64,000 bases of DNA from Flavobacteriaceae bacterium. GTDB lineage: Bacteria > Bacteroidota > Bacteroidia > Flavobacteriales > Flavobacteriaceae. Within the stretch, counting starts at the first letter, position 1, and every line of letters starts with the position of its first letter. The translations under genes were made by a program, and so were the position numbers. The notes beneath the pieces are model-generated. The model did not search any database, was not told the DNA's origin, and worked only from the letters and a program-made list of their open reading frames with translations. The DNA is taken from NCBI GenBank assembly GCA_016744415.1, contig JADGEL010000001.1, positions 963,855 through 1,027,854 on the forward strand, read 5' to 3'. Positions 46,997 through 63,576 of this stretch are shown piece by piece.

Positions 46997-47563
46997 TTGG
47001 GTAAAGTGTCAAGCATTTTAAAAGATAAATCACAAGAACAATTATGGAGATTGTTTATTAATGGCGACATGCACGCTTTTAATTTAATCTACAGTACCCA
47101 TTATCAAATGTTGCATAATTTTGGTGTTAAGTTTTTATCGCCTTCAGAAATTGAAGATGCCATTCACGACACCTTTTTAAATTTATTGAATTACAAAAAA
47201 TCACTTAATGAGGTAAACAATGTAAAAGCATATTTATTTAAATGCTTGCGAAATCAAATTTTTAAAATAAAAAAAAGTAATAAACTTGAGTTTAGTTTGG
47301 TTGAAGGAACAATTCAAAGTGATGTTGAAACTCATGATAAAGAAAAAGCCCTGATTGAATTAAAAAAAATCATTAAGCAACTGAGCCCGAGAGAGCGTGA
47401 GATTGTTTATTTAAAATATTTTCAACATTTTAATAATAAAGAGATTGCAGATTTGTTAGGGATTAAATACCAAACGGTTAGAAATATTCTAGCAAATGCA
47501 ATTATTAAATTAAGAGTCTTAGGAGAAGATATCATACCATTGTTGTTTTTACTTTTTAAATAA
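46997..47563 (+). CDS. ECF-type RNA polymerase sigma-70 factor
   Basis: Region 2 (HDTFLNLL) and region 4 HTH (REREIVYLKYFQHFNNKEIADLLGIKYQTVRNILANAIIKLR). It uses a TTG start. Confidence 0.85.
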   Translation: MGKVSSILKDKSQEQLWRLFINGDMHAFNLIYSTHYQMLHNFGVKFLSPSEIEDAIHDTFLNLLNYKKSLNEVNNVKAYLFKCLRNQIFKIKKSNKLEFSLVEGTIQSDVETHDKEKALIELKKIIKQLSPREREIVYLKYFQHFNNKEIADLLGIKYQTVRNILANAIIKLRVLGEDIIPLLFLLFK

Positions 47564-47634
47564 ATAGTTGCATTTTTATATAGTACAAAGTTTAAATTCA
47601 TACTCCTGTCCAAAGACAGTCTTAATTATTTTTC

Positions 47635-50199
47635 ATGAAAAACATATTTAAAGTATTGGTTATTTTGATCTTCATTTCATGCCAATTCACCTCCCAAGCC
47701 CAAAACTATTATTACGAGTCATACCAACCTTTTAATTCTGAGATCCCAACTCCAGAAGAATTTTTAGAATACTCAATTGGTGATTATCACACACGTCACG
47801 ATTTGGTTGTAGCTTATTTTTATAAGTTGGCTGAGTTGTCTGATAAAGCAAAAATCACAGTTTATGGTAAATCTAATGAAAACCGAAAGTTAATTATGCT
47901 AACGGTAACATCTCAAAAGAATCATTCAGATATAGAAAGCTACAAGGAAAAACATCAACAAGTAGTTGAAGGAACTCATAACATTACTGATTTTTCATCA
48001 CTCCCAATCTTTATAAATCTGGGATATGGTGTGCATGGAAATGAACCATCTAGTACCGAAGCTGCATTATTAACAGCCTATACTTTGGTGGCTTCAGAAA
48101 ATAGTGAAGTGAAAAAATATTTAGAAGAATCTATTGTATTCATTGATCCACTTATTAATCCTGATGGTCGAGATCGTCATTCTAATTGGGCAAATACTTT
48201 TAGAGGCACTCCTTTAATTGCCGATTCGTATGACATTGAACACAACGAGGGTTGGCCAAGGGGAAGAACCAATCATTATTGGTTCGATTTAAATAGAGAT
48301 TGGTTATTGGCGGTACAGCCAGAAAGTAATGCAAAGCTAAAATGGTTTCACGAATGGCATCCAAATGTGGTGACGGATTTCCACGAAATGGGAACAAGTA
48401 GTACTTACTTTTTTGAGCCAAAACAATTATCAGCATCACTAACTCCTATTACTCCTGAAGAAAATTATACCATCTTAAATGATTTATTTGCAGAGCAGTA
48501 TTCAAAAGATTTAGACGCCATAGGTTCTTTGTATTTTACGAAAGAAAAATATGATGCTACTTATCCTGGTTACGGTTCTACCTATGCAGATTTACATGGT
48601 TCTTTGGCTTTGTTATTTGAGCAAGCTAGTGCAAGAGGGCATCTGCAAGAAACCCCAACCGGTGAAATGAGTTTTTCATTTGCGATTAAAAATCAATTTG
48701 TATCTAGTTTTTCAACGATAACTGCAGCCATCAAAAATAAGAATGTATTATATGATTATCAGCAGCGTTTTTATAAAGAATCAAGAAAGAAAGCTGAACA
48801 AAGCAATTTAAAAGGATATGTTTTTGGCGATAATTATGACAAGAATAGGACAAAAGAGTTTATCGACTTATTATTAAAGCATCAGATTGAAGCCTATCCA
48901 ATCAATGATAAAATTACCATCAACAATAAAATATTTAATAAAGAATCAGGATATTTTGTACCAACAGAACAGGATAATCATTATATGGTGCAAACCATAT
49001 TTGAAACCTATGATAAATATCGCGATAGTGTTTATTACGATGCGTCGGCTTGGTCTTTGGTTAATTTTTATAATATGAATTATGAAGAAGTAAAAAAAAC
49101 ACCTGCACATGCTGATGTGATTTCTGAGGATTCAAATAAAATAAAAATCAGCAGTCTGCAAAAAAGTAATTATGCCTATGTTGTTTCTTGGGATGATTAT
49201 TATGCACCAGCATTGTTATACAAACTTCAAGATGAAGGTGTAATTGTAAAAGTTGCAACAAAAGAATTTACGGTTAACGCCAACGGAAAGAATGAAAGTT
49301 TTGATAGAGGATCGCTTTTAATTTCTGTAGGTGTTCAAAATAAAACTTCAAATAAAATATTTGAAATTGTAAAAAATGCAAGTGCCGAATTTAATATTCA
49401 GGCGTATCCTGTTGCAACCGGAATTAGTATTAGTGGTATTGATTTAGGTAGTTCAAACTTTAAAGCAATAAAACAACCTAAAGTTATGATGGTTGTTGAA
49501 GGTGGCGTATCATCTTATGAAGCTGGTGAAGTTTGGCATTTGTTTGAGCAGCGTATGAAAATGCCAATAACAAAAATTCCAGAACGTATTTTTTATAGAG
49601 CGGATTTAAGTAAATACAATACAATTATTTTAGTGTCAGGAAGCTATTCTTTATTAAATGAATCTACAAGAAACAAGTTGAAAGATTGGGTTGCTGATGG
49701 AAATACACTGATTACTTCTAGAGCTGCAAGTTCTTGGGCTCTCAAAAATAAAATTGTAAAAGAAACATTGATTAGTACTAAAAAAGATTCTACAAAAAGC
49801 CCCCGATTAAACTATGGAGAAGCAAGAGAGCATATTGGGAGAAATAGTATAGGAGGTGCCATTTTTGAAGTTGACTTAGACATCACACATCCTATTGGGT
49901 ATGGGTATCATGAGCGGACGTTACCTATTTATAAAAACAATCGTGTTTGGTTGTCACCGAGTAAAAATAATTTTTCTACGGTAGCAAAATATACTAAAGA
50001 TCCACATATTGATGGATATATAACACAAGAAAATTTAGAAAAGTACATGAATAAATCAGCTTCGATTATTGTTAGCCAGATCGGAAAAGGACGCGTTGTT
50101 CTATTTGCTGACAATCCTAATTTTAGAGGAGCTTGGTACGGAACAAATAAATTATTTATGAATGCTATCTTTTTTGGACAATTTATAAGAGTCCCTTAA
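47635..50199 (+). CDS. Secreted M14-family zinc carboxypeptidase with a large C-terminal extension
   Basis: Signal peptide. The HGNEPSSTEA (HxxE) zinc motif is present, with the third ligand in VVTDFHEMG and NPDGRD. Confidence 0.85.
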   Translation: MKNIFKVLVILIFISCQFTSQAQNYYYESYQPFNSEIPTPEEFLEYSIGDYHTRHDLVVAYFYKLAELSDKAKITVYGKSNENRKLIMLTVTSQKNHSDIESYKEKHQQVVEGTHNITDFSSLPIFINLGYGVHGNEPSSTEAALLTAYTLVASENSEVKKYLEESIVFIDPLINPDGRDRHSNWANTFRGTPLIADSYDIEHNEGWPRGRTNHYWFDLNRDWLLAVQPESNAKLKWFHEWHPNVVTDFHEMGTSSTYFFEPKQLSASLTPITPEENYTILNDLFAEQYSKDLDAIGSLYFTKEKYDATYPGYGSTYADLHGSLALLFEQASARGHLQETPTGEMSFSFAIKNQFVSSFSTITAAIKNKNVLYDYQQRFYKESRKKAEQSNLKGYVFGDNYDKNRTKEFIDLLLKHQIEAYPINDKITINNKIFNKESGYFVPTEQDNHYMVQTIFETYDKYRDSVYYDASAWSLVNFYNMNYEEVKKTPAHADVISEDSNKIKISSLQKSNYAYVVSWDDYYAPALLYKLQDEGVIVKVATKEFTVNANGKNESFDRGSLLISVGVQNKTSNKIFEIVKNASAEFNIQAYPVATGISISGIDLGSSNFKAIKQPKVMMVVEGGVSSYEAGEVWHLFEQRMKMPITKIPERIFYRADLSKYNTIILVSGSYSLLNESTRNKLKDWVADGNTLITSRAASSWALKNKIVKETLISTKKDSTKSPRLNYGEAREHIGRNSIGGAIFEVDLDITHPIGYGYHERTLPIYKNNRVWLSPSKNNFSTVAKYTKDPHIDGYITQENLEKYMNKSASIIVSQIGKGRVVLFADNPNFRGAWYGTNKLFMNAIFFGQFIRVP

Positions 50200-50221
50200 A
50201 AAATAAATTCAAATTTTTTAA

Positions 50222-50261
50222 AATCGTAATCATCTTATAAAAAGAAGGTTGCGATTTTTTT
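50222..50261 (+). terminator. Weak terminator-like hairpin after the M14 gene
   Basis: AATCGTAA(50222-50229)/TTGCGATT(50249-50256, one G-U pair), a 19-nt loop, then T7. The large loop makes this uncertain. Confidence 0.3.
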
Positions 50262-50357
50262 ATGAGCTTAACTAAAAAATAATAAAAATTTATTCTTTTT
50301 AGCATAGTACAATTTCTCTTTTTTAACTCTTCACTAATAAATAAGCGAACTAGAGTT

Positions 50358-51566
50358 ATGTCTAAAAACGAACGAACAAACGAATTACTTAACAACAACA
50401 AATTTATTGCCTGGGTATCTTCAGATAAAAAATCATTCACTGCTTATTGGGAAAATTACCAAAGTGAATTAGATGCTGATGGTTTAATAGCATTTGAAAA
50501 AGCAATTACCATACTTCAAAAATTAAATATGTTAGCTATTGATGATGAAGCTTCAAATAAATCGCCAGAATTTATTCAAGAGCAATACATCAACTTGTTA
50601 GAAGGTTTCTCTAAAATACAAAAAGGGACTATTAAAGTTATTCAATTAAAATCATATTACAAATATGCTGCAGCAATTGTACTAGTATTTGCTATAGCAG
50701 CAAGTGCTTTCTTTTTTACAGGCACTCAAAGTACATTCGAAAATCATTTAGCAAAAGTTGAATTTAACAATTCAGATATTTTAATTCAATCTGCATCAGA
50801 AGAATATTATAAAATTACTGATGAAACAAATCAGAAATGGTTGACAAAAAACGGAGTATTTGTAAATATAGATGGCGAGCAAATTAGTTTTACAGCTTCA
50901 GATAAAATTGATGCAGATGCTTATTGCAATTTTAAGATTGTTGTGCCGAATGGTAAAAATTATCAATTAAAATTAATTGACGGTACTGAAGTAGAATTAA
51001 ACTCAAATAGTACATTCTCTTTTAACAACGCAACAACTACAAATGAAAGAAACGTTACTTTAATTGGTGAAGCCTTTTTTGATGTAGCTAAAGATAAAAA
51101 TCGTCCATTTAAAGTACAATCGTCAGATATGTTGGTAGAGGTTTTAGGAACTGAATTTAATATTTCTAACAATCAAGATCAAGAATATACAAGTACAACT
51201 TTGGTTGAGGGGTCTATTAAAGTATTCAATCCACAAAACGAAAGTCAGATTATAAAACCAGGGTATCAAGCAAAGCTATTTCGTAATCAAAATGCCATAA
51301 AAGTAGACGTTGCAAATGTGCAAACCATTACTGCTTGGACTACAGGCAGGATGATATTTAACAACGAAAATTTAGAAAACTTGCTTCCAAAACTCAACAA
51401 GTGGTTTAATGTAGAATTTAAAATTGAAGGTGCTGCCATTAATAATTTTGAATTTACAGGAACTCTTAAAAGAGATAATGACCTTAACCATTTCTTGCAA
51501 ATGTTAGAGTATACCGAGGGTATTAATTATACTATTAAAAATAACCAAGTAATACTAACTAAATAG
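50358..51566 (+). CDS. FecR-family anti-sigma factor / transmembrane sensor
   Basis: Cytoplasmic N-terminus, a single TM helix (AAAIVLVFAIAASAFFF), and a periplasmic FecR domain (VTLIGEAFFDV, FKVQSSDMLVEVLGTEFNI) with a C-terminal DUF4974-like end. Confidence 0.85.
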   Translation: MSKNERTNELLNNNKFIAWVSSDKKSFTAYWENYQSELDADGLIAFEKAITILQKLNMLAIDDEASNKSPEFIQEQYINLLEGFSKIQKGTIKVIQLKSYYKYAAAIVLVFAIAASAFFFTGTQSTFENHLAKVEFNNSDILIQSASEEYYKITDETNQKWLTKNGVFVNIDGEQISFTASDKIDADAYCNFKIVVPNGKNYQLKLIDGTEVELNSNSTFSFNNATTTNERNVTLIGEAFFDVAKDKNRPFKVQSSDMLVEVLGTEFNISNNQDQEYTSTTLVEGSIKVFNPQNESQIIKPGYQAKLFRNQNAIKVDVANVQTITAWTTGRMIFNNENLENLLPKLNKWFNVEFKIEGAAINNFEFTGTLKRDNDLNHFLQMLEYTEGINYTIKNNQVILTK

Positions 51567-51631: not shown

Positions 51632-54600
51632 ATGAAAGAATATTTTAAAATGTATTTTAAAAAATGGTTGAGTAAGAGTTTACTCACACTCATTTTGTCT
51701 TTTTGTATTTCTTTCTCTTATGCGGTCGTCCCAATAAATGATGAAAGTGTATTAGAAGTAAAACAAAAAGAATCAATTTCTATTAATGAAGAGCTATCTA
51801 TAAAGGAGTTGTTTATGAAAATAGAAAATCAAACAGATTACAGCTTTTTTTACAATAGTAATTTAAAAGAGTTATCTAATAGAGTAACAATCAATTTATC
51901 AAATGCTATAGTTAATGAAATTCTTGATTTAGCTTTCAATAATTTAAATATTGAATATTCAATCAATGATAATGATATTCTTATTAGACAAAAACAAGCA
52001 AATACACAGCAACAAACTAAAACAGTAGGTGGAGTTGTTTATGACGATTTAGGTTTAACCTTGCCAGGTGTAAATATTTTAGTTGTTGGAACTAAAGATG
52101 GGGCAACAACAGACTTTGATGGTGTTTTTTCTTTAGAAGTTTCTAATGATGATAGTTTGACGTTTTCTTTTGTAGGCTTTAAAAGCCAAACAGTAAAAGT
52201 AGCCGGAAACACCAATTTTAAAATTACAATGTCGCCAGAAGACAATGTATTAGATGAGGTAATTATAGCAGGTGTTGCTGCTGGTACATCTCGTAAAAAA
52301 ATATCTATTTCTGTAGCTAGATTAAATGAAGATGATATAAACAAAGTACCGCAAACTTCAGTTTCATCTGCATTACAAGGAAAAATTGCAGGGGTTACCT
52401 CAACCTCATTAAGTGGTTCTCCAGGATCTAGTGACCAAATTGTACTAAGAGGAGCAACAAGTTTTTTAGGATCTAATAGCCCAATGATTTTGATTGATGG
52501 TGTTATTATGCAAGGTTCATTAGCTGATATCAATGTAGATGATGTTGAAAATATGGAAATTGTAAAAGGAGCAGCAGCCTCTTCATTATATGGTTCGGAA
52601 GCTGCAAATGGAGTAATTGTTATTACTTCAAAAAGAGGTAAAAGTTCAAAAAACGGAAATGCTGCAATCACTGTTAGAAGTGAGACTGGATTTCAAGAGG
52701 TAGCTAAATATTTAGACCTGTCAACTTCGCATCATTATTATTTATCACCAGAGTGGCAAGAGAATGACACCTATACTAATTATTATTTTGTTGATTACCC
52801 TGCAGATTATGTTTCTGGATGGGATCCTAGAATTAATGGCAATAGAATTGAAAAGCCAAACCATTATCAAGATTTACCATTTAGAGTTAACAGAAACTTG
52901 CAAAAGGAAATGTTTACTGGAGGTTTGTATTCAACAAATTTTGTCAGCTTTTCTAAATCTATCAACAAAACAAATGTGTATGCCTCTTTTGAGAATAATG
53001 AAAATCAAGGGGTAGTGATAGAAACAGGAGGTTATAAACGGCAAAGTGTACGGTTAAATGTAGACTTTGATATTTCTGAAAATGTTAGCTTCTCTGCAAG
53101 TAACAATTATATCAAGACTTCTAATGATTTCTTGGGAGGTGGTACTGCAGCATTTTTTGAAGTATTAATGACTGAGCCTGATGTAGATTTATTTGCTGAT
53201 AATGTAGATGGACAGAAATACAACTTCTATCCAAACCATTGGAACACACAATTTGCAAATCCAATCTATGATTTGTGGAAAAAAGAAAGTGGTTCAGATA
53301 AATCTCGATTGATGAGTGCTTTTGACTTAAAATGGAAAACCAATGATTGGTTAAATTTTGAGACTTCTTATGCTTTTGAAAGACAAGATTACCACAGTAC
53401 TAATTATACACCAAAAGGAACCATAGTTGATTTACAACCAAACTATTTAGATCCAAACGCAAATGTTCCAATTGTTGATCCAAACAATCCTATTAACCCT
53501 CAATATTCTGATGGTTCATTAAGTAAATATAATTCTACAATTTTCAATCAAACCTTTAGAGCTACAGCTAATTTTAAAAAGAGTTGGGGAGAGTTAGACT
53601 TTAATGGAAAACTGAGTTATTTATATGAAAACAATCAATTTGAATCAATTACAACAAGAGGGTCAGAATTTTCTTTAGAAGGTTATCCGTCATTTGATTT
53701 TTTAAATCAAGAAACGATATCCGCAACTGATTATATTTTTCAAGATATTACATATAATTATTTTGTGATAGCTTCATTTGTATATAAAGACCGTTATATT
53801 TTTGATGCCTTGTATAGAAATGATAACTCATCATTGTTTGGTTCTGAAGTAAGAAGTCAAAACTATTTTAGAGTTTCGGGAGCTTATCGTATTTCTAAGG
53901 ATATTGAAATACTGGGGGTTCAAGAATTAAAATTGAGGGGGGCTTATGGTGGTTCTGGTGTGAGGCCACCTGATGGTGCTATTTATGATATTTTTACAGC
54001 TACACAAACAGGGACTGAGCCACTTCAAAAAGGAAACCCGTATTTAACACCTTCACAATCTAATGAATTAGAAATAGGTTTAGAAGCATCATTCTTAAAC
54101 AGATTCAGGTTCGAAGCTACTTACTCATTTACTCAAGTTTTAGATCAATATGTAAATGCTCCTTTGGCAGCTTGGGAGAGTGGTTTTCCACATAAATGGG
54201 TAAATGCAGGAGAACTTCAAAGCAAGTCTATTGAAGCGATGTTAAATGCCAACATTATTAATAACGAAAACTTTAAATGGGATGTTACATTAACCTTTGA
54301 TAAAATTGATCAAAAAATTACAAAGTTAAATATCCCTGAATACAGAACAGGACCAAGAGGTGCTTTTAAAATCCGTGAAGGTGAGGCTTATGGAGGTATG
54401 TACGGGTCTGATTTTGTAAGGACATTAGATCAAATGGAAGAACAATTGCCAAGCGGTACTGATATTACAGAGTATTCTGTAAACAGAGATGGTGTAGTTG
54501 TTTTAACAAGTGATATTGGTTCTGTCAATGAAAAACCATACATCCTTTTAGATGAAACTGGAGCCAGAGCAAATGTAAAAATTGGAGATATCAATCCTGA

Positions 54601-55071: not shown

Positions 55072-56583
55072 ATGATGATGAAAAATATAAAACGATACAT
55101 TTTATTATTAGTAATAAGCATTAATATTTCAGGATGTTCAGATGATGTATTAGATATCGAAAATAAAAATGACCCAGGTAGGCTAGAAACTTTGGCAGAC
55201 CCTGATGGCTTGTATTCTCTTACTTCAAGTTTATTTAATACATGGTTTGTACAAGAGCAACATAATTTTGGATCACCAGGTCCAGCATTGTGGGTAATGT
55301 CTGATTGGGGAACGGTAACTTTTGCCAACTACGCAACCAGAGATATGAGTGAAGAACCACGAATTTTTATGGATAACAACCCATCATATGGCTACCATGC
55401 AACCATCCGTAATTTTTGGCAAAAAATGTATGCCGTATTAACAACTGCAAATAGTGTTATAATTGGAATTGAAGGTAATGGAATTGAAATAGGCGACAAC
55501 GGAGAGGACACAATGAAGGTAAAAGGAATGGCTTATTTTATGCAAGGGCTTTCTAACGGATATATAGGCTTGTTATATGACAAAGCATACCCGTTAGATG
55601 AAACAACTGAAGGTGAAATTGAAGTGACAGATTATCAAACTTCAATTGCTATTGCCATTGAACAGTTAGAAAAAGCCATCATTGTTTTTGATAACAACTC
55701 CTTTAATATTCCTGCTGATTGGATGAATGGAAATTCCTTTTCTAATACTGAGATGTCTCAGTTGGCACATTCATTTATCGCAAGATTGATGGTGTATGGG
55801 CCAAGAAACGAAGCTGAAACAGATGCATTAGATTGGAATAAGGTTTTGATGCACGCACAAAACGGAATCACACAAGATTTTAATATTGAAGGAGATGGAA
55901 ATGGAACTACAAGAAATTGGATGTCATGGTACAAATACTATATGGCAAGACCAAATTGGGGTAAAGTTGATATGAGAGTGGTAAATGTATTAGACAATAC
56001 CATTCCTCCTAACTGGCCAGAAGGGGGGCTAGCAGATTTACCGCATGATGGTAGAATTATTTCTAGCGATTTAAGAGTATTGAGCGATTTTCAATACAAT
56101 ACTGCTAATAACAGACCAGAAAGAGGTTTGTACAGGTGGTCAACCTATCGTTATTCTAGATTAGACTCTTACTTTAATGCTAACTTTTTTGCACCGGTTA
56201 TTATGATGCGCGCAGCAGAAATTGATTTGTTCGAAGCAGAGGCTTTGTTAAGGTTAGGACGTTTATCAGAAGCAGCAACCGTAATTAATACAGGAACAAG
56301 AGTTATAAGAGGAAATCTTCCTAATGTAGCAGTTGAAGAAATTGCAATTAGAGATGCTATCTTTTACGAACGTACTATTGAATTGCCATTAACAGGTATG
56401 GGAATCGAATATTTTGATATGCGTAGAAATGATCTTTTACAAGACGGTTCTTTATTACATTTCCCAATTCCTGCACAACAATTAGAAACCATTCTAGAAC
56501 CATTTTATACCTACGGAGGTTTGAATCCACAATTTGGAGTTCCAGGGCAAGACGTAGCTATAGATGGTTGGTACAGACCATAA
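55072..56583 (+). CDS. SusD/RagB-family nutrient-binding outer-membrane lipoprotein
   Basis: Lipobox NISGC and a TPR-like helical body. The C-terminal ERTIELPLTGMGIEYFDMRRNDLL motif is present. It starts 3 nt after SusC. Confidence 0.85.
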   Translation: MMMKNIKRYILLLVISINISGCSDDVLDIENKNDPGRLETLADPDGLYSLTSSLFNTWFVQEQHNFGSPGPALWVMSDWGTVTFANYATRDMSEEPRIFMDNNPSYGYHATIRNFWQKMYAVLTTANSVIIGIEGNGIEIGDNGEDTMKVKGMAYFMQGLSNGYIGLLYDKAYPLDETTEGEIEVTDYQTSIAIAIEQLEKAIIVFDNNSFNIPADWMNGNSFSNTEMSQLAHSFIARLMVYGPRNEAETDALDWNKVLMHAQNGITQDFNIEGDGNGTTRNWMSWYKYYMARPNWGKVDMRVVNVLDNTIPPNWPEGGLADLPHDGRIISSDLRVLSDFQYNTANNRPERGLYRWSTYRYSRLDSYFNANFFAPVIMMRAAEIDLFEAEALLRLGRLSEAATVINTGTRVIRGNLPNVAVEEIAIRDAIFYERTIELPLTGMGIEYFDMRRNDLLQDGSLLHFPIPAQQLETILEPFYTYGGLNPQFGVPGQDVAIDGWYRP

Positions 56584-56619: not shown

Positions 56620-57516
56620 ATGAAAATATTTAAATATTCAATCGCAACAATCGCTCTTTTATTGAGCATCGTTTTTACTTCTTGTGAAGCAGATCCATTA
56701 CCAGTTTATCCTGACGTAATCGTACAAATCGATACTGTTTTTGTTCAAGGAGTTAATGTTACATATCCAACTTTTACTGGTTCAGATACAGGCGATGATA
56801 GATTTTATGCTTTTAGTGGTGGTAGTGCTACAGATTTAAGTTCATTATCAGCGACTGATTGGACCTATGAAACTTGGATTAAAGTAGATGCTGATGCATT
56901 GATTGGTGATCGTACAGCATTACAAGGTGCTGATGCAGGTGGTGCTTGTATTATGGAACGTGGTAGAAACTTTGAATTGTATTTAATTGATGATGCTAAT
57001 GCAGATTTTGCCATTAAATACAACAGATTAGACAGCAGTAATGAAGCTATTGGTACTATGCAGTCTGATGAGTCAGGAATCAATTTAAGTTTTAATGAAT
57101 GGGCACATGTTGCTATTACAAGATCATCGAGTGATAATACTGCAAAGTTTTTTATTAACGGAGTTTTAATAGCGTCTAGTGATGATGATTTATGGATTCA
57201 ACCAGTAAATGATACATGGTTAGATTTTAATTATATGTATCGTGGTGGAAATATAAATTTCTTTAAAGGCTCTTTTGACAATATTAGAGTGTCTTATGTA
57301 GAAAGATATTCATCTGATTTTGAGCCAATTCAGCATGAGCGTTTACCTGTTGATGGTGATACTTTATTGCAAATGGATTTGGATGAAAATTTAACTCCTT
57401 TTGACCCGGTTACTGATTTTGACAAAGTTGAAATTAAGGGAGTTTACTCTTATTATATAAAGGTAATTAACACAGTATTTTGGACTAGCGAAGATTCTGT
57501 AATACCTACAACATAG
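56620..57516 (+). CDS. Surface lipoprotein with a LamG/concanavalin-A-like (Laminin_G_3-type) domain
   Basis: Lipobox VFTSC. The pattern WTYETWIKVDA...FNEWAHVAITRSS...AKFFINGVLI...FDNIRVS..RYSSDFEP is typical of Laminin_G_3. It occupies the SusE/F-like position after SusD. Confidence 0.7.
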   Translation: MKIFKYSIATIALLLSIVFTSCEADPLPVYPDVIVQIDTVFVQGVNVTYPTFTGSDTGDDRFYAFSGGSATDLSSLSATDWTYETWIKVDADALIGDRTALQGADAGGACIMERGRNFELYLIDDANADFAIKYNRLDSSNEAIGTMQSDESGINLSFNEWAHVAITRSSSDNTAKFFINGVLIASSDDDLWIQPVNDTWLDFNYMYRGGNINFFKGSFDNIRVSYVERYSSDFEPIQHERLPVDGDTLLQMDLDENLTPFDPVTDFDKVEIKGVYSYYIKVINTVFWTSEDSVIPTT

Positions 57517-57547: not shown

Positions 57548-57579
57548 GAGTAAGTTGCCCATTTGACGGCAACTTACTC
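57548..57579 (+). other. Perfect 12-bp stem-loop between the LamG lipoprotein gene and the first C10 peptidase gene
   Basis: GAGTAAGTTGCC (57548-57559), loop catttgac, GGCAACTTACTC (57568-57579). No T-run follows. Confidence 0.6.
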
Positions 57580-57596: not shown

Positions 57597-59933
57597 ATGA
57601 TGAAGCTAAATTACCTTAAAAATATTTTTGTATTAACCCTAACAATTTTATTGAGCTCAAATACTTATAGTCAAGAATTAAATAGAAATGTTAAAGAGGC
57701 AACTGCAAATTTTTATAATGATTTAACTGGTAATTTTAGTGAAATTAAAAGTGTTGTTACTTTAAATAAAAATGAAGCATTTAAAACCTTTGTGATTAAT
57801 TATAAAAGCGGGGGTTATGTGATTTTACAAGAAACGGCATCTGGAAACAAAATAATGGGTTTTTCTGAAGTTGGTGAATTCAGCATTGAAGGAAGTCCTT
57901 TAGAAAAAGTAATTGAAGGAACTTTTGAAAATAACTCTTTTACTGGAGAAAATACAATATTAGCTAGAACGAACAATTCATCAAACAATAACCCAGCTGG
58001 AGATATTGATCCCTTTATGACAGATGTTTGGGGTGGAGTTAATTGCTTTGATAATAATGGGCAAGCGGTATATCCAGGTAACTATTATACACCTTCTCAT
58101 TGTTCGGCAGGTTGTGTGGCAATATCAATGTCTCAAGTATTACATTATTACGAATGGCCAATTGTAGGTATGGGTAGCAATACTTATTCAGATAATTATA
58201 ATGGTACATTAACTCGCCATTCAAGGCATTTTGATGCTATTGAATATGATTGGGCGAGCATGCAAGATTTATATCAAGGTGTTGCATCAACAGATGAAAG
58301 TAGAAAAGCTATTGGCGAATTATTTTACAGCGCAGATTGTGCTTTACAAATGAATTTTGAACCTTCAGGTTCAACCTCTAACATTAATACAACACCTTTT
58401 GTTTATCAAAATTTCTTCCGTTATACTAGTAATTATCAAGATGTAACTTGGGGTTCTTTTTGGTCACGATTATATGATAATATTCAACAAGGACGTCCAG
58501 TTCCAATGGCAGTAGATGCAAGTAGAACTGAAGATGGGCATGTATTTGTTGTAAACGGGTATAAGGAAATAGGAGGCGAACCTTATTACTATTTAAACTG
58601 GGGTTGGTATAATGATAACAATATAAATGCATGGTATAATATACAAGCTTGGACAGATGCATCACCAGGATATAATAGAGTTACTGGGGCTTCTTTTGAT
58701 TTGTTGCCAAATCCACAAATAACTGATATTACTGAAACTGGGTCTGGTAACGATTTTAAAGTTACTTGGGAAATAAGCGCGAAGATTACTCCAGATGAAT
58801 ATACCTTAGAACAAAACATCAACAACGCTGGTTGGACAGAAGTTGCATCAGGTATTACAGCTACAGAATATACCATTACAAACCCACAAGACGAAGTTTA
58901 CAGGTTTAGAGTCAAAGCTATGATTCAAGGATCATACTATGCAAATTCTTGGTCAGAATCAGAAATTCATGCTGTTACTGGAGATTTTAATGGCTATGGT
59001 GAATTTGGAGGAAATCAATATGCTTATGCGTATCAAACTCCAGATACACATTTAGATTTTACAAATGATTATACATTCGAAACTTGGATTCGTTTAAAAG
59101 ATGGAAATATTGATGGAAATGTGATTTTAGATGAAGAATATGCTTTCGGAATTGATATTGCAAATGTTGATGATCAAGCAGCAACTTACGATGTGAAGTT
59201 TACAGCACATAATAGTTCAGCATCAATTATTTCAAACACAAATGGGTTTAAGTTAACATCAAATACTTGGCATCATATAGCTGTTTCTCATACAGGTACA
59301 TTTACAAGATTATATATTGATGGAACTTTACAAGCAGTTGATATTAGTAGCAACTTTAATTTGGCTTCTTCAAATTCTGCCTTGAATTTAGGAGAAAAAT
59401 ATAGAAATGGTTATCAAGGTAGAATTAAAGCTGATATGGATCAACTTAGAATTTCTACAATTGCTAGATATACTTCAGATTTTACTCCAGATAGAGAAGA
59501 GGTTTTCACTATTGATGCTAATACTATTTCTTATTTTACTTTTCAAAATTTTCATGGAGTGCGCTTAAAAGATGAAGCTTCAGGATTAAGTTTTAGAGTT
59601 AGTAATTCAACCAATAATGTTGAATGGAGTTTTGAGAGAACTTCTGGTTCATTATCTACTGATGATTATGATTTGCTAAAATCATCGCTAAATCTTTACC
59701 CAAACCCGGTAAGTAAGAACCATTTTCAAATTTCTTTTAAAGATGATATTCAATTAGAAAATGTACAAATTCAAATCTTTGATTTACTAGGGAAGCAAAT
59801 CAATTTTAACAACAACCAACGCGCATTTAATCAATGGGAAATTTCTATCAATGATAGCACTCCTACAGGAATCTATTTTGTACAAATTTCTGGCGATGGT
59901 TTTACAGCAAGTAAAAAATTAATTATACAATAA
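57597..59933 (+). CDS. T9SS-secreted C10 (streptopain-family) cysteine peptidase: prodomain, C10, Fn3-like, LamG, Por_Secre_tail
   Basis: GCVAISMSQVLHYYEWP (Cys codon 58113-58115) and GHVFVVNGY...YYLNWGWYN match the SpeB catalytic Cys and His/Trp motifs. An N-terminal Inhibitor_I69-like region is present. The LamG pattern is YTFETWIRL...WHHIAVSHTG...RLYIDGTL. The C-terminus is LYPNPVSKN...GIYFVQI...KKLIIQ. Confidence 0.85.
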   Translation: MMKLNYLKNIFVLTLTILLSSNTYSQELNRNVKEATANFYNDLTGNFSEIKSVVTLNKNEAFKTFVINYKSGGYVILQETASGNKIMGFSEVGEFSIEGSPLEKVIEGTFENNSFTGENTILARTNNSSNNNPAGDIDPFMTDVWGGVNCFDNNGQAVYPGNYYTPSHCSAGCVAISMSQVLHYYEWPIVGMGSNTYSDNYNGTLTRHSRHFDAIEYDWASMQDLYQGVASTDESRKAIGELFYSADCALQMNFEPSGSTSNINTTPFVYQNFFRYTSNYQDVTWGSFWSRLYDNIQQGRPVPMAVDASRTEDGHVFVVNGYKEIGGEPYYYLNWGWYNDNNINAWYNIQAWTDASPGYNRVTGASFDLLPNPQITDITETGSGNDFKVTWEISAKITPDEYTLEQNINNAGWTEVASGITATEYTITNPQDEVYRFRVKAMIQGSYYANSWSESEIHAVTGDFNGYGEFGGNQYAYAYQTPDTHLDFTNDYTFETWIRLKDGNIDGNVILDEEYAFGIDIANVDDQAATYDVKFTAHNSSASIISNTNGFKLTSNTWHHIAVSHTGTFTRLYIDGTLQAVDISSNFNLASSNSALNLGEKYRNGYQGRIKADMDQLRISTIARYTSDFTPDREEVFTIDANTISYFTFQNFHGVRLKDEASGLSFRVSNSTNNVEWSFERTSGSLSTDDYDLLKSSLNLYPNPVSKNHFQISFKDDIQLENVQIQIFDLLGKQINFNNNQRAFNQWEISINDSTPTGIYFVQISGDGFTASKKLIIQ

Positions 59934-60007: not shown

Positions 60008-62437
60008 ATGAGAACTAAACTTTTTCTTTTATTATTATTTACATTTTTTAGTATTAAAACTACTTTTTCACAATTCAATAAAAACGAATTAATAGAATAT
60101 AGTAAGAACTTTATTACGCAGCAACAATTAAATAATGTAACACCTAAAAGTTTAGAACCATTAATAAATAATAAAGGGGAAGTTTATGCTAATGTAATTA
60201 ACCTTGAACCAAAAGGGTTCATTGTTTTCTCCTCATCAAAAAAGTTAGCGCCAGTTATTTCTTTTTCAACAGAAGCTGATTTTGATTTTAGCCAATCTAA
60301 AGAGAATATTCTTTTGAATATGATTAAAAGCGATACCAAAAATGAGTTGCAACTTATTAAAAGTAAGTTAAGTGTTGATAATCAAAAAGTGGTTGTTAAA
60401 AATAATAAAGCTTGGGACAAATTAAAAAATAATACAGATAGAAATAGTAATTCTAATCGATCAGCAACTCTTACACAATATGGTGCACATTTTACCAGTA
60501 TTTGGGGAGGTGTAAATTGTTATGATGATTTAGGAAATGGTGTTAATGTAGGTAATTATTATACGCCAAATAACTATTCGCCAGGTTGTGTTGCAACAAC
60601 TTTGAGTATGATTTTACATTATTATCGTTGGCCAGAAACTGGTGTTGGTTCACACACCAATTATGACACCTCGGGAAGTTCTCAAACAAGTTGGTCTGCA
60701 AATTTTGGAGCAGCAATCTATGATTGGGATAATATGTTAGATGAGTACCAAAACCAATCATCAACCTTAACTGAGCAAAAGGCAATGGGGTATATATCTT
60801 TCCATACAGCTACTGCATTAGATATGGATTATGAGTCAACAGGGTCAACAAGTAATATCAATAGAATACCATCTGCTGCTGGTTCTTATTTTAGATTTTC
60901 TGGACACCACCAATATTCAAATTGGTCAAATTTTTGGACTAGAATGCAAGAAAATTTACAAAACGGACATCCAGTTCCAATTGCTATAGATGCGACTAAT
61001 GGTTCGGGTCATGCTCCTGCTGTTGATGGATACCGTTACAATGTGGGTGATGCACAAAGTGATTATTATTACCACCTAAATATGGGTTGGTATGGATCAA
61101 GTAATGCTTGGTATAGAATAAGGGGTTCATTTAGTGCTGGTGGTTATACAAGTGTAAGTGCTGCAGTATTTGATTTATTGCCAGAGCCAATATTTACAGA
61201 AAACTCTATTGAAGCAACTAGTAAAACATTTACATTGAATTGGAGAACAAGTAAGACACTAAACTGGGATGCTTTTGAATTGCAAGAAAGTACCGATGGG
61301 GGTTCTAACTATACTACTTTAAGCAATGCAATTGTAGATACAACTTATGTTAGAACTGTTGCAACAGGAGGTTCTTATAAATACCGAGTGCGCTCTAAAG
61401 TTGATGGTAATTTTTACTCTAATAGTTATTCAGAATCTATTAATGTGACCGTGCCTTATGATTATACATATTTAGATTTTGATGGTAATGACTCATTTTT
61501 TGTGTATGAGAATTCAAACAATGATTTAGATATTTCTAACTCATATACCATAGAAACATGGGTTAAAGTTGACTCTAGAACAAGCGGGACCTATCCAGTA
61601 ATTTTAGATCGTAAAACGGTGTTTTCTATGTATCTCATTAGCGATTCAAATGCAGATTATGCGGTAAAGTTTGTTGCTAGAAATAGTTCAGGTAGCGTTA
61701 TTGCATCGGTACAGTCTGATAATTCTTCAGAAAATTTAAACTTTGGTAATTGGGTGCATGTTGCAGTCTCAAGAAGTGGAAATTCAACAAAACTTTTTAT
61801 TAATGGAACACAAGTAGGAAATTCTACAGATAGTGATTTTTCATTATCAGCATCATCAAATGCATTAAATATTGGAGCGAGATATTGGAGTGGATATGGA
61901 AGGTATTTAGATGGTAAAATTGATAAAATAAGAATTACGGATAATGCTACTTACACAGGAAGCTTTACTCCTAATAGAAAAGAAAAATATACAACAAACA
62001 GCAATACAAGAATGTTGCTTGCTTTAGATGAGGGGATTGGAACGATTTTGAATGATGGTGCAAGTAATTTTTCATCAGTACAATTAAGATCATCACCTAA
62101 CCAACCAAACTGGATAGTTGATGATGAATCTCAAAGTGCTAGAAATGCTACACTATTTGTTAAAGATAAAGAAATTAAAGAAGCAAAATCAATTAGCAAT
62201 TTATACCCTAATCCAGCTAAAGATAAAATTACAAGTTCAATAAATGTAAAAGAAGCAACCTCTGGAGAAGTATTGATATATGATAGTTTTGGAAAGCTTC
62301 AACTAACAAAAAGTATCAAGCTTAAAAAAGGAATCAATTCTATTGAAATGAATGTTTCAAAACTTAAAAACGGAATTTATTTTATCACTATTAAAACAGA
62401 AACAGACCTATTTAAATCGAAATTTTTAAAACAATAA
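60008..62437 (+). CDS. T9SS-secreted C10 (streptopain-family) cysteine peptidase, second paralog with the same architecture
   Basis: GCVATTLSMILHYYRWP (Cys codon 60587-60589) and GHAPAVDGY...YHLNMGWYG. The LamG pattern is YTIETWVKVD...WVHVAVSRSG...KLFINGTQV. The C-terminus is LYPNPAKDK...GIYFITI...KFLKQ. Confidence 0.85.
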   Translation: MRTKLFLLLLFTFFSIKTTFSQFNKNELIEYSKNFITQQQLNNVTPKSLEPLINNKGEVYANVINLEPKGFIVFSSSKKLAPVISFSTEADFDFSQSKENILLNMIKSDTKNELQLIKSKLSVDNQKVVVKNNKAWDKLKNNTDRNSNSNRSATLTQYGAHFTSIWGGVNCYDDLGNGVNVGNYYTPNNYSPGCVATTLSMILHYYRWPETGVGSHTNYDTSGSSQTSWSANFGAAIYDWDNMLDEYQNQSSTLTEQKAMGYISFHTATALDMDYESTGSTSNINRIPSAAGSYFRFSGHHQYSNWSNFWTRMQENLQNGHPVPIAIDATNGSGHAPAVDGYRYNVGDAQSDYYYHLNMGWYGSSNAWYRIRGSFSAGGYTSVSAAVFDLLPEPIFTENSIEATSKTFTLNWRTSKTLNWDAFELQESTDGGSNYTTLSNAIVDTTYVRTVATGGSYKYRVRSKVDGNFYSNSYSESINVTVPYDYTYLDFDGNDSFFVYENSNNDLDISNSYTIETWVKVDSRTSGTYPVILDRKTVFSMYLISDSNADYAVKFVARNSSGSVIASVQSDNSSENLNFGNWVHVAVSRSGNSTKLFINGTQVGNSTDSDFSLSASSNALNIGARYWSGYGRYLDGKIDKIRITDNATYTGSFTPNRKEKYTTNSNTRMLLALDEGIGTILNDGASNFSSVQLRSSPNQPNWIVDDESQSARNATLFVKDKEIKEAKSISNLYPNPAKDKITSSINVKEATSGEVLIYDSFGKLQLTKSIKLKKGINSIEMNVSKLKNGIYFITIKTETDLFKSKFLKQ

Positions 62438-62490
62438 ATCAATAATCAATTATTAATCTCCGAAATACTTCGGAACTAAATTTTACTATT

Positions 62491-63576
62491 ATGAAAAAAC
62501 AATTACTAACAATTTTAACAATCACTGTAATGGCATTTACTGCAAATGCGCAAACAGTTACTTATTTAAACTTTGACGGAGCCTCTACGAGTAATGACAG
62601 GTTTTATGCATTTAATGGAGCTAGTGCTACAGATATGAGCGACATGTCTGGAACAGACTATACTTTTGAAGTATGGATTAAAGTAGATGCAACTGCATTG
62701 ATTGGAGATAGAACTGAAGCAACAGGATTTACTGCTAATGGTGCATCTCTAATGAATAGAAGAAAAGACTTCGAATTGTATATTATTGACGATGCAGATG
62801 CAGATTATGCTATTAAATACAATAGACTAGATGCAACAGATGATACAGTTGCTACAGGTACTATGCAGTCTGATGCAGCAGTTGAAAACTTATCATTTGG
62901 TGATTGGGTACATGTTGCTATTTCACGTTCTTCAGGTGATGGAATTGCAAAATTTTATATTAACGGGGTTTTGATTGATTCAAGTTCAGATGCTCTTTGG
63001 GCTCAGGTTGCTAATAGTAATGAATGGATGGGTTTTAATTATATGTGGAGAGGATCTAATATGAACTTTTATAAAGGAGCGTTTGATAATGTTAGAGTAT
63101 CAACAGTTGATAGATATCCAACTGCTTTTACTCCGGATCAGGGAGCAGTATTTACTGTAGATGCTGATACAAAAATTCAATTAGATTTAGATCATAATAT
63201 AATTGAGTTTGACCCTGTAGATAATTTTGCAAAGGTTGAAGTTAAATCGGGTAGCGGTTACGGTTATTTTATTAAATATCACAAGTTAAATACAACTTGG
63301 ACAGATAGTGAAGTTTTGTCTGTAGATAGAAACAACCTTATCGATTTTAGTGTTTATCCAAATCCAGTGACTGAAAAAACATTTGTAATCAATGCAAATG
63401 AAGGTATTAAAAACGTACAGATATTTGATGTTTTAGGAAAATCAGTAAAAGTGGTTGAGGTATCAGAAAGAGCTACTCAATTAAATGTTGATGTAAATAA
63501 TTTGAGCAAAGGAATTTACTTTGTTAAAACAGTAACAGATGCAGGAATAGGAACTCAAAAAATTATTATTCAATAA
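62491..63576 (+). CDS. T9SS-secreted LamG-domain protein (paralog of 56620..57516)
   Basis: Signal peptide ending ANAQ. The LamG pattern is YTFEVWIKVDA...FGDWVHVAISRSS...AKFYINGVLI...FDNVRVS. The C-terminus is VYPNPVTEK...GIYFVKT...QKIIIQ. Confidence 0.75.
   Translation: MKKQLLTILTITVMAFTANAQTVTYLNFDGASTSNDRFYAFNGASATDMSDMSGTDYTFEVWIKVDATALIGDRTEATGFTANGASLMNRRKDFELYIIDDADADYAIKYNRLDATDDTVATGTMQSDAAVENLSFGDWVHVAISRSSGDGIAKFYINGVLIDSSSDALWAQVANSNEWMGFNYMWRGSNMNFYKGAFDNVRVSTVDRYPTAFTPDQGAVFTVDADTKIQLDLDHNIIEFDPVDNFAKVEVKSGSGYGYFIKYHKLNTTWTDSEVLSVDRNNLIDFSVYPNPVTEKTFVINANEGIKNVQIFDVLGKSVKVVEVSERATQLNVDVNNLSKGIYFVKTVTDAGIGTQKIIIQ

Follow-up and report, generated by a model that had tools for sequence, protein, structure and literature searches.

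The window, the whole 64-kb stretch of Flavobacteriaceae DNA that was analysed, contains nine co-directional genes (46997-63576) with open reading frames at exactly the coordinates given beforehand. These genes, three upstream genes and the transcription signals are as follows, with supporting matches in parentheses.

43496-44740, plus strand: secreted Cys-Ntn hydrolase, C45/C59/C69-like (Pfam AAT, 6.9e-4, and NCBIfam C45_proenzyme, 3.3e-10, both under cutoff)
44745-45884, plus strand: exported lipoprotein with a class I glutamine-amidotransferase-type domain and C-terminal HEAT repeats, GATase1-HEAT (Pfam BPL_N, DJ-1_PfpI, SNO, HEAT_2)
45928-46863, minus strand: glutaminase A without signal peptide, predicted cytoplasmic (NCBIfam glutaminase equivalog, 448 bits, cutoff 368)
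46997-47563, plus strand: ECF sigma factor (Pfam Sigma70_r2 and r4_2; NCBIfam TIGR02937, 85 bits)
47635-50199, plus strand: M14-type carboxypeptidase, predicted periplasmic, with a long C-terminal DUF4350/ThuA-like extension (Peptidase_M14, 4.8e-14)
50220-50261, plus strand: terminator-like hairpin and U-run 3' of the M14 gene (-14.9 kcal/mol, z = -3.8)
50358-51566, plus strand: FecR-type transmembrane anti-sigma factor (Pfam FecR, 2e-17; FecR_C, 5e-20)
51632-55069, plus strand: SusC/RagA-type TonB-dependent transporter with N-terminal STN (TIGR04056, 586 bits; STN; Plug)
55072-56583, plus strand: SusD/RagB-like surface lipoprotein of a very divergent subfamily (SusD_RagB, 29.8 bits against 23.1)
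56620-57516, plus strand: surface LamG (Laminin_G_3) lipoprotein (8e-13; lipobox TSC|EAD, Cys22)
57548-57579, plus strand: strong intergenic hairpin between uptake genes and T9SS cargo genes (-20.0 kcal/mol, z = -6.8)
57597-59933, plus strand: T9SS-secreted C10 cysteine endopeptidase 1, prodomain-C10-Fn3-like-LamG-CTD (C10, 1.2e-33; Laminin_G_3; Por_Secre_tail/TIGR04183)
60008-62437, plus strand: T9SS-secreted C10 cysteine endopeptidase 2 (C10, 1e-34; weak I69; Laminin_G_3; Por_Secre_tail)
62491-63576, plus strand: T9SS-secreted LamG protein, LamG-CTD (Laminin_G_3, 4.8e-12; Por_Secre_tail/TIGR04183, 56.8 bits)
63591-63640, plus strand: intrinsic terminator closing the locus (14-bp stem, -19.4 kcal/mol, z = -6.8, then U8)

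An earlier note on this DNA had described nine genes with these domains, found their catalytic residues intact and placed a strong terminator after them, and coordinates, profile matches, alignments and folding all agreed with that description. Profile searches supported the C10 (1e-33 and 1e-34) and Laminin_G_3 assignments and matched STN-SusC, SusD, M14 and Por_Secre_tail/TIGR04183. None of 200 shuffled sequences folded as well as the hairpin that follows the M14 gene (50220-50261). The hairpin between the LamG lipoprotein gene and the first C10 gene is followed by no clean U-run. Since the hairpins at 50220-50258 and 57548-57579 interrupt them, the nine genes probably do not form one single transcript.

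The STN domain of SusC scored 31.8 bits (cutoff, 28.4). SusC orthologues from the distant clade retain an N-terminal extension of ~95 residues, which is missing from the bare paralogue compared with them, and comparison of SusC proteins found the STN-like extension confined to those of the system. The resemblance of SusC to RagA is no better than its resemblance to a glycan SusC. The SusD-like protein has 142 homologues, and its lipobox residue Cys22 is invariant; the best PDB profile match reached only 3.4e-5 over ~90 residues and, judged by sequence, the protein is too far from any solved SusD/RagB for its ligand to be deduced. Acidic residues follow the lipobox in both SusD and the LamG lipoprotein, the latter being a paralogue of the LamG-CTD protein (58% identity over 252 residues). 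LamG domains are members of the concanavalin-like lectin/glucanase superfamily, and because of this membership they may recognize glycans. This clade has four LamG modules. As read from its sequence, the FecR protein has one hydrophobic stretch, around residue 110.

T9SS CTDs were read from the sequences of three proteins, the two C10 peptidases and the LamG-CTD protein; T9SS genes themselves were not found within the 64-kb window. Cys194, His335 and the GW motif of the second C10 peptidase aligned with the catalytic residues, including the catalytic Trp, of interpain A and of the streptopain zymogen. The first peptidase is colinear with the second and 33% identical to it; its Cys173 and His315 fall in register. 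From the prodomain-C10-Fn3-LamG-CTD architecture that had been claimed, the C10, LamG and CTD parts were recovered. The prodomain and Fn3 parts fared less well: Inhibitor_I69 was sub-threshold in the second peptidase (20.1 bits against 25) and not found by Pfam in the first, and the Fn3 domain has as its sole basis a weak PDB match (3mpc, E = 0.003).

Across 14 orthologues of the M14 protein, the motifs HGNE, NPDGR, LNRD, DFHEMG and LLFEQ show no variation, and HGNE, NPDG and the His align with carboxypeptidase N; matches of the ~500-residue extension to DUF4350/ThuA are sub-threshold. The M14 gene was confined to loci whose SusD is more than 58% identical and, by this distribution, is a clade-specific accessory.

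Gene order is kept in Lutibacter, Polaribacter, Seonamhaeicola, Allomuricauda and many metagenome-assembled genomes (MAGs), and the synteny sigma/FecR/STN-SusC/SusD/LamG/C10-CTD holds for SusD identities between 84% and 45%. At 37-44% identity, parts are rearranged (X-CTD, C10-CTD, FecR, SusC, SusD, Ntn, GATase1-HEAT, sigma) into one co-directional block that occurs in Bacteroidales and other orders. Inspected neighbourhoods of related loci all included a sigma gene. FecR was encoded in 27 of 30 full-length C10-bearing loci versus 0 of 15 loci lacking C10 (Fisher p = 2e-9). LamG proteins are nearly missing from the distant clade, in which C10, Ntn, GATase1 and SusCD persist; by this comparison, they are clade-specific additions. 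The earlier note had stressed targeting by LamG and trimming by M14, steps that thus belong to accessories.

The sigma gene, at which the locus had been said to begin, proved too narrow a boundary. In distant loci (those of Bacteroidales, Lentimicrobiaceae and Saprospiraceae and those labelled Chlorobiota), Ntn and then GATase1-HEAT lie directly 3' of susD. Among full-length distant loci, this pair accompanied C10 in 13 of 13 cases versus 0 of 14 bare SusC/D paralogues. On these comparative grounds, the Ntn hydrolase and the GATase1-HEAT lipoprotein (43496-45884) are conserved components of the system. In the window, the pair is cut off from the sigma gene by the oppositely oriented glutaminase gene, and its co-regulation with the sigma-led genes is suggested by comparative linkage only. 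Of 28 loci with SusD identity above 58%, 12 had a glutaminase gene no more than 10 kb away, and the other identity bins, distant clade included, had none; the glutaminase gene at 45928-46863 appears to represent a component that often joins the system in Flavobacteriaceae.

All 24 homologues compared share Cys23 of the Ntn hydrolase. This residue immediately follows the signal peptide, cleavage of which would bare it as the N-terminal nucleophile. An AF2 model (pLDDT 72, pTM 0.78) matched bile-salt hydrolase/penicillin V acylase, C69 dipeptidase and acid ceramidase (Foldseek probability 1.0, E ~4e-6, TM 0.3-0.5), with best TM coverage for 5iau. Of three Ntn homologues whose genomic position was checked, one is not part of a SusCD locus. 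In 25 homologues of the GATase1-HEAT protein, the triad Cys120-His238-Glu240 is invariant and lipobox Cys17 nearly so. Cys120 aligns with the DJ-1/Hsp31 nucleophile, and the AF2 model (pLDDT 90) matched the PdxT/HisH glutaminase subunits (TM 0.75-0.80).

Absence of CAZymes between the sigma gene and the terminator was confirmed, since Pfam and NCBIfam profile searches of the nine products found no CAZyme family. None was detected in ~40 large ORFs scanned over the rest of the window, and no CAZyme Pfam family occurred around SusD orthologues with identities as low as 45%, flanks included. The spans of 64 system-bearing loci held only 28 unmatched ORFs, 24 of which were scanned, the others being near-duplicate copies of one 236-239 aa ORF; among the 25 Pfam families listed (of 35) for inserted genes, none was a GH, PL, CE or sulfatase catalytic domain. 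The CAZyme-rich context that the earlier note had named as a test was therefore not seen around orthologues. The idea that the locus is the edge of a glycan PUL was rejected, gene order being conserved and orthologous loci being devoid of CAZyme Pfam families.

On balance, the locus is probably a conserved CAZyme-free Bacteroidota nutrient-acquisition locus of the SusC/SusD plan, dedicated to a proteinaceous (amide-bonded) substrate. Anatomy and CAZyme-free conservation support in part the proposal that a PUL design is applied to protein or glycoprotein; its boundary, its core parts and its novelty had to be revised. For localisations, order of action, inducer and substrate, we infer the following scheme. 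The T9SS would export one to three C10 (streptopain-type) cysteine endopeptidases and, in this clade, the LamG protein, and the polymer would be cut at or near the cell surface. SusD and the paralogous surface LamG lipoprotein would capture fragments for TonB-energized import by the STN-bearing SusC. Periplasmic breakdown would involve the Cys-Ntn hydrolase and the lipoprotein-anchored glutamine-amidotransferase-type Cys-His-Glu hydrolase, to which the M14 carboxypeptidase would add in the Lutibacter/Polaribacter/Allomuricauda clade; the cytoplasmic glutaminase encoded next door would handle released glutamine. Ligand occupancy of SusC would be relayed through STN to the FecR anti-sigma factor, freeing the ECF sigma factor and inducing the operons. 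The locus is a good candidate for protein or peptide feeding, with an importer and an envelope switch paired with amide-cleaving rather than sugar-cutting enzymes. It is a variant rather than a new idea because peptide-importing SusCD systems and "oligopeptide PULs" have already been published: RagAB and BT2263-64 import oligopeptides, as cited in PMC10132118, where oligopeptide PULs with peptidase genes also appear as an annotated class. Lapebie et al. found no CAZymes in 52% of susC/D loci (PMC6499787), and Lutibacter has been described as proteolytic, with T9SS cargo (PMC5219744).

The substrate may be a protein, a glycoprotein or an unusual amide-linked polymer. Given three conserved cysteine amidohydrolases and a glutaminase often encoded nearby, an unusual amide-bonded substrate is conceivable, and the amides cut by Ntn and GATase1 may include non-peptide ones. 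That the locus targets non-canonical amide bonds rather than ordinary protein (in polymers with gamma-glutamyl or isopeptide links, in peptides that are glutamine-rich or N-acylated, or in cell-wall-derived peptides) is unlikely, if worth weighing; the C10/Cys-Ntn/GATase trio would then carry out reactions beyond the reach of ordinary peptidases, with glutaminase completing the process. Members of the Ntn and GATase1 superfamilies typically cut side-chain or non-peptide amides, as do C59 acylases, gamma-glutamyl hydrolase (C26) and the PdxT/HisH glutaminases, and the linkage of C10 to a Cys-Ntn and a stand-alone exported GATase-type hydrolase extends to the distant clade. Identity across orders is also much higher for the Ntn protein (62-83%) than for SusD (37-45%), as would suit an enzyme of precise chemistry. 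However, C69 Ntn enzymes are plain dipeptidases, general peptidases occur among DJ-1/PfpI-type GATase1 proteins, C10 enzymes such as SpeB are endopeptidases of broad specificity, and the distant clade lacks the glutaminase.

It is quite improbable that the locus serves a glycan or glycoprotein, with peptidases stripping the protein part only and with CAZymes located elsewhere in the regulon or unrecognized (e.g., a LamG/concanavalin-fold hydrolase or lyase). Bacteroides host-glycan PULs are typically under ECF/anti-sigma control, and the LamG modules would fit such a function. Remote or unknown CAZymes have been proposed for CAZyme-free susC/D loci (Lapebie et al., PMC6499787). Nonetheless, the searches described above returned none, the near absence of LamG from the distant clade indicates that glycan recognition is not a conserved requirement, and flanking additions, where any, are more peptidases (M3, C1 and S8 beside some related loci).

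The C10 enzymes SpeB and interpain A are classical virulence factors. A mainly non-nutritional role (C10 proteases for virulence, antagonism or surface remodelling, with SusCD/FecR/sigma sensing a host or competitor cue) would accord with the listing, as a putative toxin, of a T9SS C10 protein from Tenacibaculum maritimum (PMC5561996) and with the ability of SusCD systems to import proteins for purposes other than nutrition (PMC11467351), but is very improbable, since the linked periplasmic exopeptidase-type enzymes and glutaminase fit catabolism and the locus occurs widely among free-living Bacteroidota of marine, sediment and cave habitats, many MAGs among them.

The earlier note had described nine co-directional genes at 46997 to 63576, and a check of open reading frame positions recovered all nine at these coordinates on the plus strand. 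Profile searches bore out the domain assignments of the nine products, which are listed in order of position.

From 46997, plus strand: ECF sigma factor, first of the nine genes, with regions 2 and 4 found by profile search
47635-50199, plus strand: M14 protein of 854 residues with an N-terminal Peptidase_M14 domain
Next gene, plus strand: anti-sigma factor with FecR and FecR_C domains
Next gene, plus strand: SusC/RagA transporter (TIGR04056, 586 bits) with STN and Plug domains
Next gene, plus strand: SusD_RagB protein scoring above the gathering threshold
Next gene, plus strand: LamG lipoprotein with a Laminin_G_3 domain
57597-59933, plus strand: C10-1, with C10, Laminin_G_3 and Por_Secre_tail domains
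60008-62437, plus strand: C10-2, with the same three domains
62491-63576, plus strand: LamG-CTD, with Laminin_G_3 and Por_Secre_tail domains

The susC-like and susD-like genes are adjacent and separated by 2 nt. Two finer attributions to the C10 proteins stood less firmly, since the prodomain match to I69 was sub-threshold and the Fn3 module was represented by a single weak match. Folding confirmed the strong terminator proposed at the end of the locus (14-bp stem, -19.4 kcal/mol, z = -6.8, followed by U8). A terminator-like hairpin was also found 3' of the M14 gene and a -20 kcal/mol hairpin between the LamG lipoprotein gene and C10-1, so that the nine genes are probably transcribed as two or three units. 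A consensus promoter and terminator scan returned 91 promoter-like sites versus 96 expected and overlooked the real terminator because its loop spans 13 nt. On the minus strand, a 210-codon open reading frame with a GTG start (52039-52671) is nested antisense in susC and is most likely spurious, and another (63640-64000), which starts beyond the window end, converges on the locus terminator.

The catalytic residues of the peptidases were conserved. The C10 domains matched Pfam at 1e-33 and 1e-34, and Cys194, His335 and the Trp residue of C10-2 aligned with the catalytic residues of interpain A and streptopain (SpeB), including the position of the Cys/Ala mutant. The alignment of C10-2 to the streptopain zymogen starts at residue 62, in the prodomain. 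The two C10 proteins are colinear and 33% identical, and Cys173 and His315 of C10-1 fall at the catalytic positions of C10-2. Thus, the Cys-His dyad, the conserved Trp and a zymogen-type prodomain, sub-threshold for I69, are all present. The window peptidases share these features with streptopain and interpain A but differ from both by carrying Fn3-like, LamG and T9SS sorting domains and by being encoded in an uptake locus. The M14 protein scored 53 bits versus a Pfam cutoff of 21.6, and its motifs HGNE, NPDGR, LNRD, DFHEMG and LLFEQ did not vary across 14 orthologues. These motifs supply the HxxE...H zinc ligands, the Asn-Arg pair for the substrate carboxylate and the catalytic Glu, the roles of LNRD and of the Glu being assigned from motif position. 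A search of the PDB with the full M14 sequence gave no significant match, and a relaxed search with the N-terminal domain gave a marginal alignment in which HGNE, NPDG and the His of the fourth motif matched carboxypeptidase N. The C-terminal part of about 460 residues (residues ~390-854) showed sub-threshold matches to DUF4350/ThuA (GATase1-like) alone; its elbow position is not occupied by a nucleophile Cys, and it has no sequence relative in the PDB.

Three of the proteins, C10-1, C10-2 and LamG-CTD, are predicted to be secreted by the T9SS, as each combines a C-terminal sorting domain (TIGR04183, 42-57 bits versus a cutoff of 23) with a signal peptide that has Gln at the predicted +1 position. 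No T9SS machinery genes were found in the 64 kb window; Lutibacter profundi has T9SS/gliding genes and 17 proteins with the sorting domain (PMC5219744). SusD (...SGC|SDD) and the LamG lipoprotein (...TSC|EAD) carry lipoboxes followed by acidic residues. In Bacteroidota, this pattern is linked with surface exposure. The N-terminus of the M14 protein reads as a signal peptide or perhaps a lipobox, and as the acidic motif is missing there, a periplasmic location is suggested. The LamG lipoprotein and LamG-CTD are paralogues (58% identity over 252 residues), and one module is therefore predicted to reach the surface by two different routes.

The SusD-like protein had 142 homologues. The neighbourhoods of those at 84, 69, 67, 51 and 45% identity each contained sigma, FecR, STN-SusC, SusD, the LamG lipoprotein and between one and three C10-LamG-CTD genes, in many cases with LamG-CTD after them; M3, C1 or S8 peptidases were added in some loci. 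Species-representative genomes yielded 140 relatives, from which 80 loci were kept, and the occurrence of each part was determined by tblastn, with the proteins of the window as queries, in all 87 loci. The C10 domain was present in 30 of the 45 full-length loci. FecR accompanied it in 27 of these 30 and occurred in none of the 15 others (p = 2e-9). The M14 gene was confined to loci with SusD identity above 58%, and LamG proteins were nearly confined to loci at 45% or more, so that both are clade-restricted rather than core parts, which corrects the scheme of the earlier note. Where SusD identity exceeded 58%, 12 of the 28 loci had a glutaminase gene (equivalog-level match) as a neighbour.

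Among full-length loci at 37 to 44% SusD identity, 13 contained both C10 and Ntn, the secreted Cys-Ntn hydrolase encoded in the window at 43496-44740, and 14 contained neither. The former came from Bacteroidales MAGs, Draconibacterium orientale-labelled MAGs, Maribellus, Lentimicrobiaceae, Saprospiraceae and Chlorobiota-labelled MAGs. Their SusCs keep the N-terminal extension of about 95 residues, with sub-threshold STN and FecR_C matches. In one such locus, L057, the co-directional order is X-CTD (a further T9SS protein), I69-C10-CTD, FecR, SusC, SusD, Ntn, GATase1-HEAT (an exported glutamine-amidotransferase-type lipoprotein) and sigma. Other relatives in this identity range, bare SusC/D pairs with none of the other parts, from Maribacter, Cellulophaga, Leeuwenhoekiella, Zhouia, Arenibacter, Pontimicrobium and Draconibacterium mangrovi, were rejected as members of the system and treated as paralogues; the SusC of one bare paralogue is without the extension.

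The locus boundary at 46997 proved too narrow. In the distant loci, the Ntn and GATase1-HEAT genes lie directly downstream of susD, and the census led us to assign to the system two genes that lie upstream of this boundary in the window, at 43496-44740 and 44745-45884. Two of three neighbourhoods retrieved with Ntn homologues as seeds were of the same locus type, the third being solitary. Ntn was not seen in many Flavobacteriaceae-type loci, and its occurrence is a lower bound, because the 10 kb flanks that were compared stop short of the gene (in the window it lies 11.6 kb upstream of susD). In L029, one of the two closest relatives, the GATase1 gene was found at the extreme edge of the locus (92% identity).

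Ntn comprises 414 residues, with an invariant Cys23 directly after the signal peptide, where processing would expose it as the N-terminal nucleophile. It weakly matched Pfam AAT (19.8 bits versus a cutoff of 23.2) and NCBIfam C45_proenzyme (39.8 bits versus 85), and a sequence search of the PDB gave no significant match. Its AlphaFold model, of moderate quality (pLDDT 72, pTM 0.78), resembled bile-salt hydrolase/penicillin V acylase, C69 dipeptidase and acid ceramidase (Foldseek probability 1.0, TM 0.3-0.5). The protein is thus predicted to be a Cys-Ntn hydrolase (C45/C59/C69; clan PB) at the superfamily level only, since its scores are below both curated cutoffs and the assignment of the alpha-beta-beta-alpha Ntn fold depends on a model of this quality. 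More than 5000 homologues were retrieved, the closest from Lutibacter, and every named one is a "hypothetical protein".

GATase1-HEAT (379 residues, more than 700 homologues) is a lipoprotein with Cys17 as the modified residue, a Pfam BPL_N/DJ-1-like domain and HEAT repeats. The triad Cys120, His238 and Glu240 (GICAG...GHPE) did not vary in 25 sequences, and the confident model (pLDDT 90) superimposed on PdxT/HisH glutaminase subunits with TM values of 0.75-0.80. Sequence and model thus agree on the nucleophile-elbow Cys and His-x-Glu triad of class I amidotransferases, set on the flavodoxin-like GATase1 fold. The partnership of these enzymes with a cytoplasmic synthase or acceptor domain is not preserved, as GATase1-HEAT begins with a lipoprotein signal peptide and its C-terminus consists of HEAT repeats only. 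It is therefore a stand-alone exported hydrolase, closer to C26/C56-type enzymes, which we take to be its nearest functional analogues; an exported, stand-alone triad hydrolase of the amidotransferase type is unusual.

The best-supported reading, which we consider reasonably probable, is a SusCD-based uptake system for a proteinaceous substrate. It upholds the interpretation of the earlier note in part, with the boundary and the core redrawn. From the domains, the catalytic residues, the signals and the gene linkage that were observed, we infer localization, order of action, inducer and substrate as follows. The C10 endopeptidases would cleave the substrate outside the cell or at its surface, and the fragments would be captured by SusD, with the LamG proteins contributing in the window clade. 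SusC would import the captured fragments, and Ntn, GATase1-type and, in the window clade, M14 hydrolases would complete their breakdown in the periplasm. Feedback would pass through STN, FecR and sigma. The same core of T9SS-exported C10, exported Cys-Ntn, exported GATase1-HEAT and sigma/anti-sigma-gated SusCD could also form a dedicated utilization system for an environmental polymer with non-standard amide bonds, although we regard this as rather unlikely. All three conserved enzymes are cysteine amidohydrolases, two of them belonging to superfamilies whose usual targets are side-chain or non-peptide amides, and a glutaminase gene is often found nearby. The substrate might therefore be peptide material that is gamma-glutamyl or isopeptide-linked, rich in glutamine, or N-acylated, and in that case Ntn and GATase1-HEAT would represent the first members of new extracytoplasmic amidase families.

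The sigma factor, the FecR-type anti-sigma factor, the STN-extended SusC and the adjacent SusD also occur together in the ECF-sigma/anti-sigma PULs of Bacteroides. These PULs encode glycoside hydrolases and target host glycans. Unlike them, no examined locus of the window family contained a CAZyme. Profile searches upheld the claim that the nine products belong to no CAZyme family, and none was found in about 40 other large open reading frames scanned across the window. No GH, PL, CE or sulfatase Pfam family occurred in the annotated neighbourhoods of SusD homologues, nor did any appear among the families of genes inserted in 64 loci, of which 25 out of 35 were listed. We decided against the locus being the edge of a glycan PUL, since the window flanks consist of housekeeping or amino-acid metabolism genes and the orthologous loci are CAZyme-free, none being embedded in a CAZyme-rich PUL. 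Upstream, the flank contains genes for glutaminase, the two exported hydrolases, a methylmalonyl-CoA decarboxylase-type operon, Era GTPase and a TonB-dependent receptor. A cryptic glycan PUL is quite improbable. The locus has the susC/susD pair and is without the co-located CAZymes or sulfatases of the CAZyme-based definition; it is not a PUL by that definition and is predicted to operate in a PUL-like manner. In Bacteroidota, 52% of susC/D loci are without CAZymes, and the substrates of such loci are mostly not known (PMC6499787). PUL catalogues based on CAZyme clusters omit them by construction (PMC6298971).

The proposed uptake of protein fragments resembles RagAB and the gingipains of Porphyromonas gingivalis, in which a SusC/SusD-family peptide importer is fed by T9SS-exported cysteine endopeptidases; peptide import by RagAB is cited in PMC10132118. 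The gingipain proteases are C25, whereas those of the window locus are C10 and encoded in cis, and the window locus adds an ECF sigma factor, a FecR anti-sigma factor, STN and the Ntn, GATase1-type and M14 hydrolases. RagA was the best-scoring solved relative of the window SusC (6sli, 4.6e-54), with the glycan SusC 8aa4 about equal (3.8e-53). Deducing the ligand from solved structures was therefore uninformative. The window SusD has no detectable sequence similarity to RagB, which was not among its matches; as a single sequence or a profile, it matched only about 90 C-terminal residues of uncharacterized SusD-like proteins.

The SusCD pair of BT2261-2264 from Bacteroides thetaiotaomicron is likewise reported as an oligopeptide importer, as cited in PMC10132118. 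BT_2264 was among the solved relatives of the window SusC (5fq6, 1.2e-31, nearly full length). The BT2261-2264 locus is not known to contain secreted protease or amidohydrolase genes. As cited in PMC5219744, the chitin locus of Flavobacterium johnsoniae also encodes a T9SS-exported degradative enzyme, ChiA, inside a SusC/SusD locus. ChiA is a chitinase of family GH18 with a polysaccharide as its substrate, whereas the window cargo comprises two C10 peptidases and a LamG protein. Two papers describe the F. collinsii genes TRV642_0198-0209, annotated as an "oligopeptide PUL" (PMC10132118), and a collagenase/SusCD/Dcp2 cluster of F. psychrophilum proposed to take up oligopeptides (PMC9723704), so that both SusCD oligopeptide import and the label are already in the literature. 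These loci are similarly CAZyme-free or peptidase-rich, with a role derived from annotation or transcriptomics, but the passages on them list S9, S37, M24, M43, collagenase and Dcp and describe no C10/Ntn/GATase1 trio. Our literature search found no description of the C10/SusC/anti-sigma/T9SS architecture or of the Ntn and GATase1-HEAT components. The general concept is thus established, and the architecture itself is widespread, coherent and genetically tractable, with two unstudied exported enzyme families.

All parts of ECF sigma/FecR/STN trans-envelope signalling are present in the window, and the anti-sigma factor has one membrane segment as read from its sequence. The sigma gene, with a predicted TTG start codon, is preceded at ~46940-46995 by a TAAATTTG box (Bacteroidetes housekeeping -7 motif TAnnTTTG) and a duplicated TTCGCAAC. 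The duplication was rejected as a shared ECF promoter motif, its retention being limited to L001 and L029, the closest relatives. What recurred ahead of the sigma gene in many of the orthologous loci was a housekeeping-type TAnnTTTG box, and comparison of these upstream regions did not establish a regulon motif.

A non-nutritional role is very unlikely. The locus family is a clean and widely conserved CAZyme-free susC/susD example with a coherent enzyme set. Cultured hosts include Lutibacter, Polaribacter, Seonamhaeicola, Allomuricauda/Flagellimonas and Labilibaculum. The locus also has its own sensor and regulator, and the sensing and uptake of high-molecular-weight organic nitrogen by marine Bacteroidota could therefore be studied genetically in such hosts. 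For biochemistry, Ntn and GATase1-HEAT offer two large families of predicted exported cysteine amidohydrolases.

Several other genes were recorded in the related loci and in the window. X-CTD occurs as two to four tandem paralogues in L057 (2789-3838), L053, L055, L068, L076 and L078. Its N-terminal domain of about 270 residues has no Pfam match, and its start (VLLVDDD...VIWHT) reads like a flavodoxin/GATase1-type fold. Comparison by hhalign gave no match to LamG-CTD or to the M14 C-terminal domain and a weak one to the GATase1-HEAT family (28% probability, signal peptide included). A conserved open reading frame of 236-239 codons without a precomputed Pfam match lies between two C10 genes in L003 (15384-16094) and recurs in L013, L015, L018 and L030, all Allomuricauda/Flagellimonas-type loci. 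The window encodes a 563-residue MORN-repeat protein (16303-17994, minus strand); proteins encoded close to Ntn in L089 and L090 also show faint MORN_2 matches, probably by coincidence. A TPR-His_kinase/LytTR two-component pair with a T9SS cargo protein directly after it occupies 1683-7053 on the plus strand, the cargo (4510-7053) being a further protein with the sorting domain (847 residues, Por_Secre_tail and DUF5123). A second His_kinase/LytTR pair (32561-34287) adjoins a TonB-dependent receptor. The Na+-pumping methylmalonyl-CoA/oxaloacetate decarboxylase-type operon (38515-42850, minus strand) encodes OAD_beta, a biotin carrier, OAD_gamma, a carboxyltransferase and a glyoxalase-fold epimerase, suggesting that this Lutibacter-like organism is capable of propionate-type fermentation.
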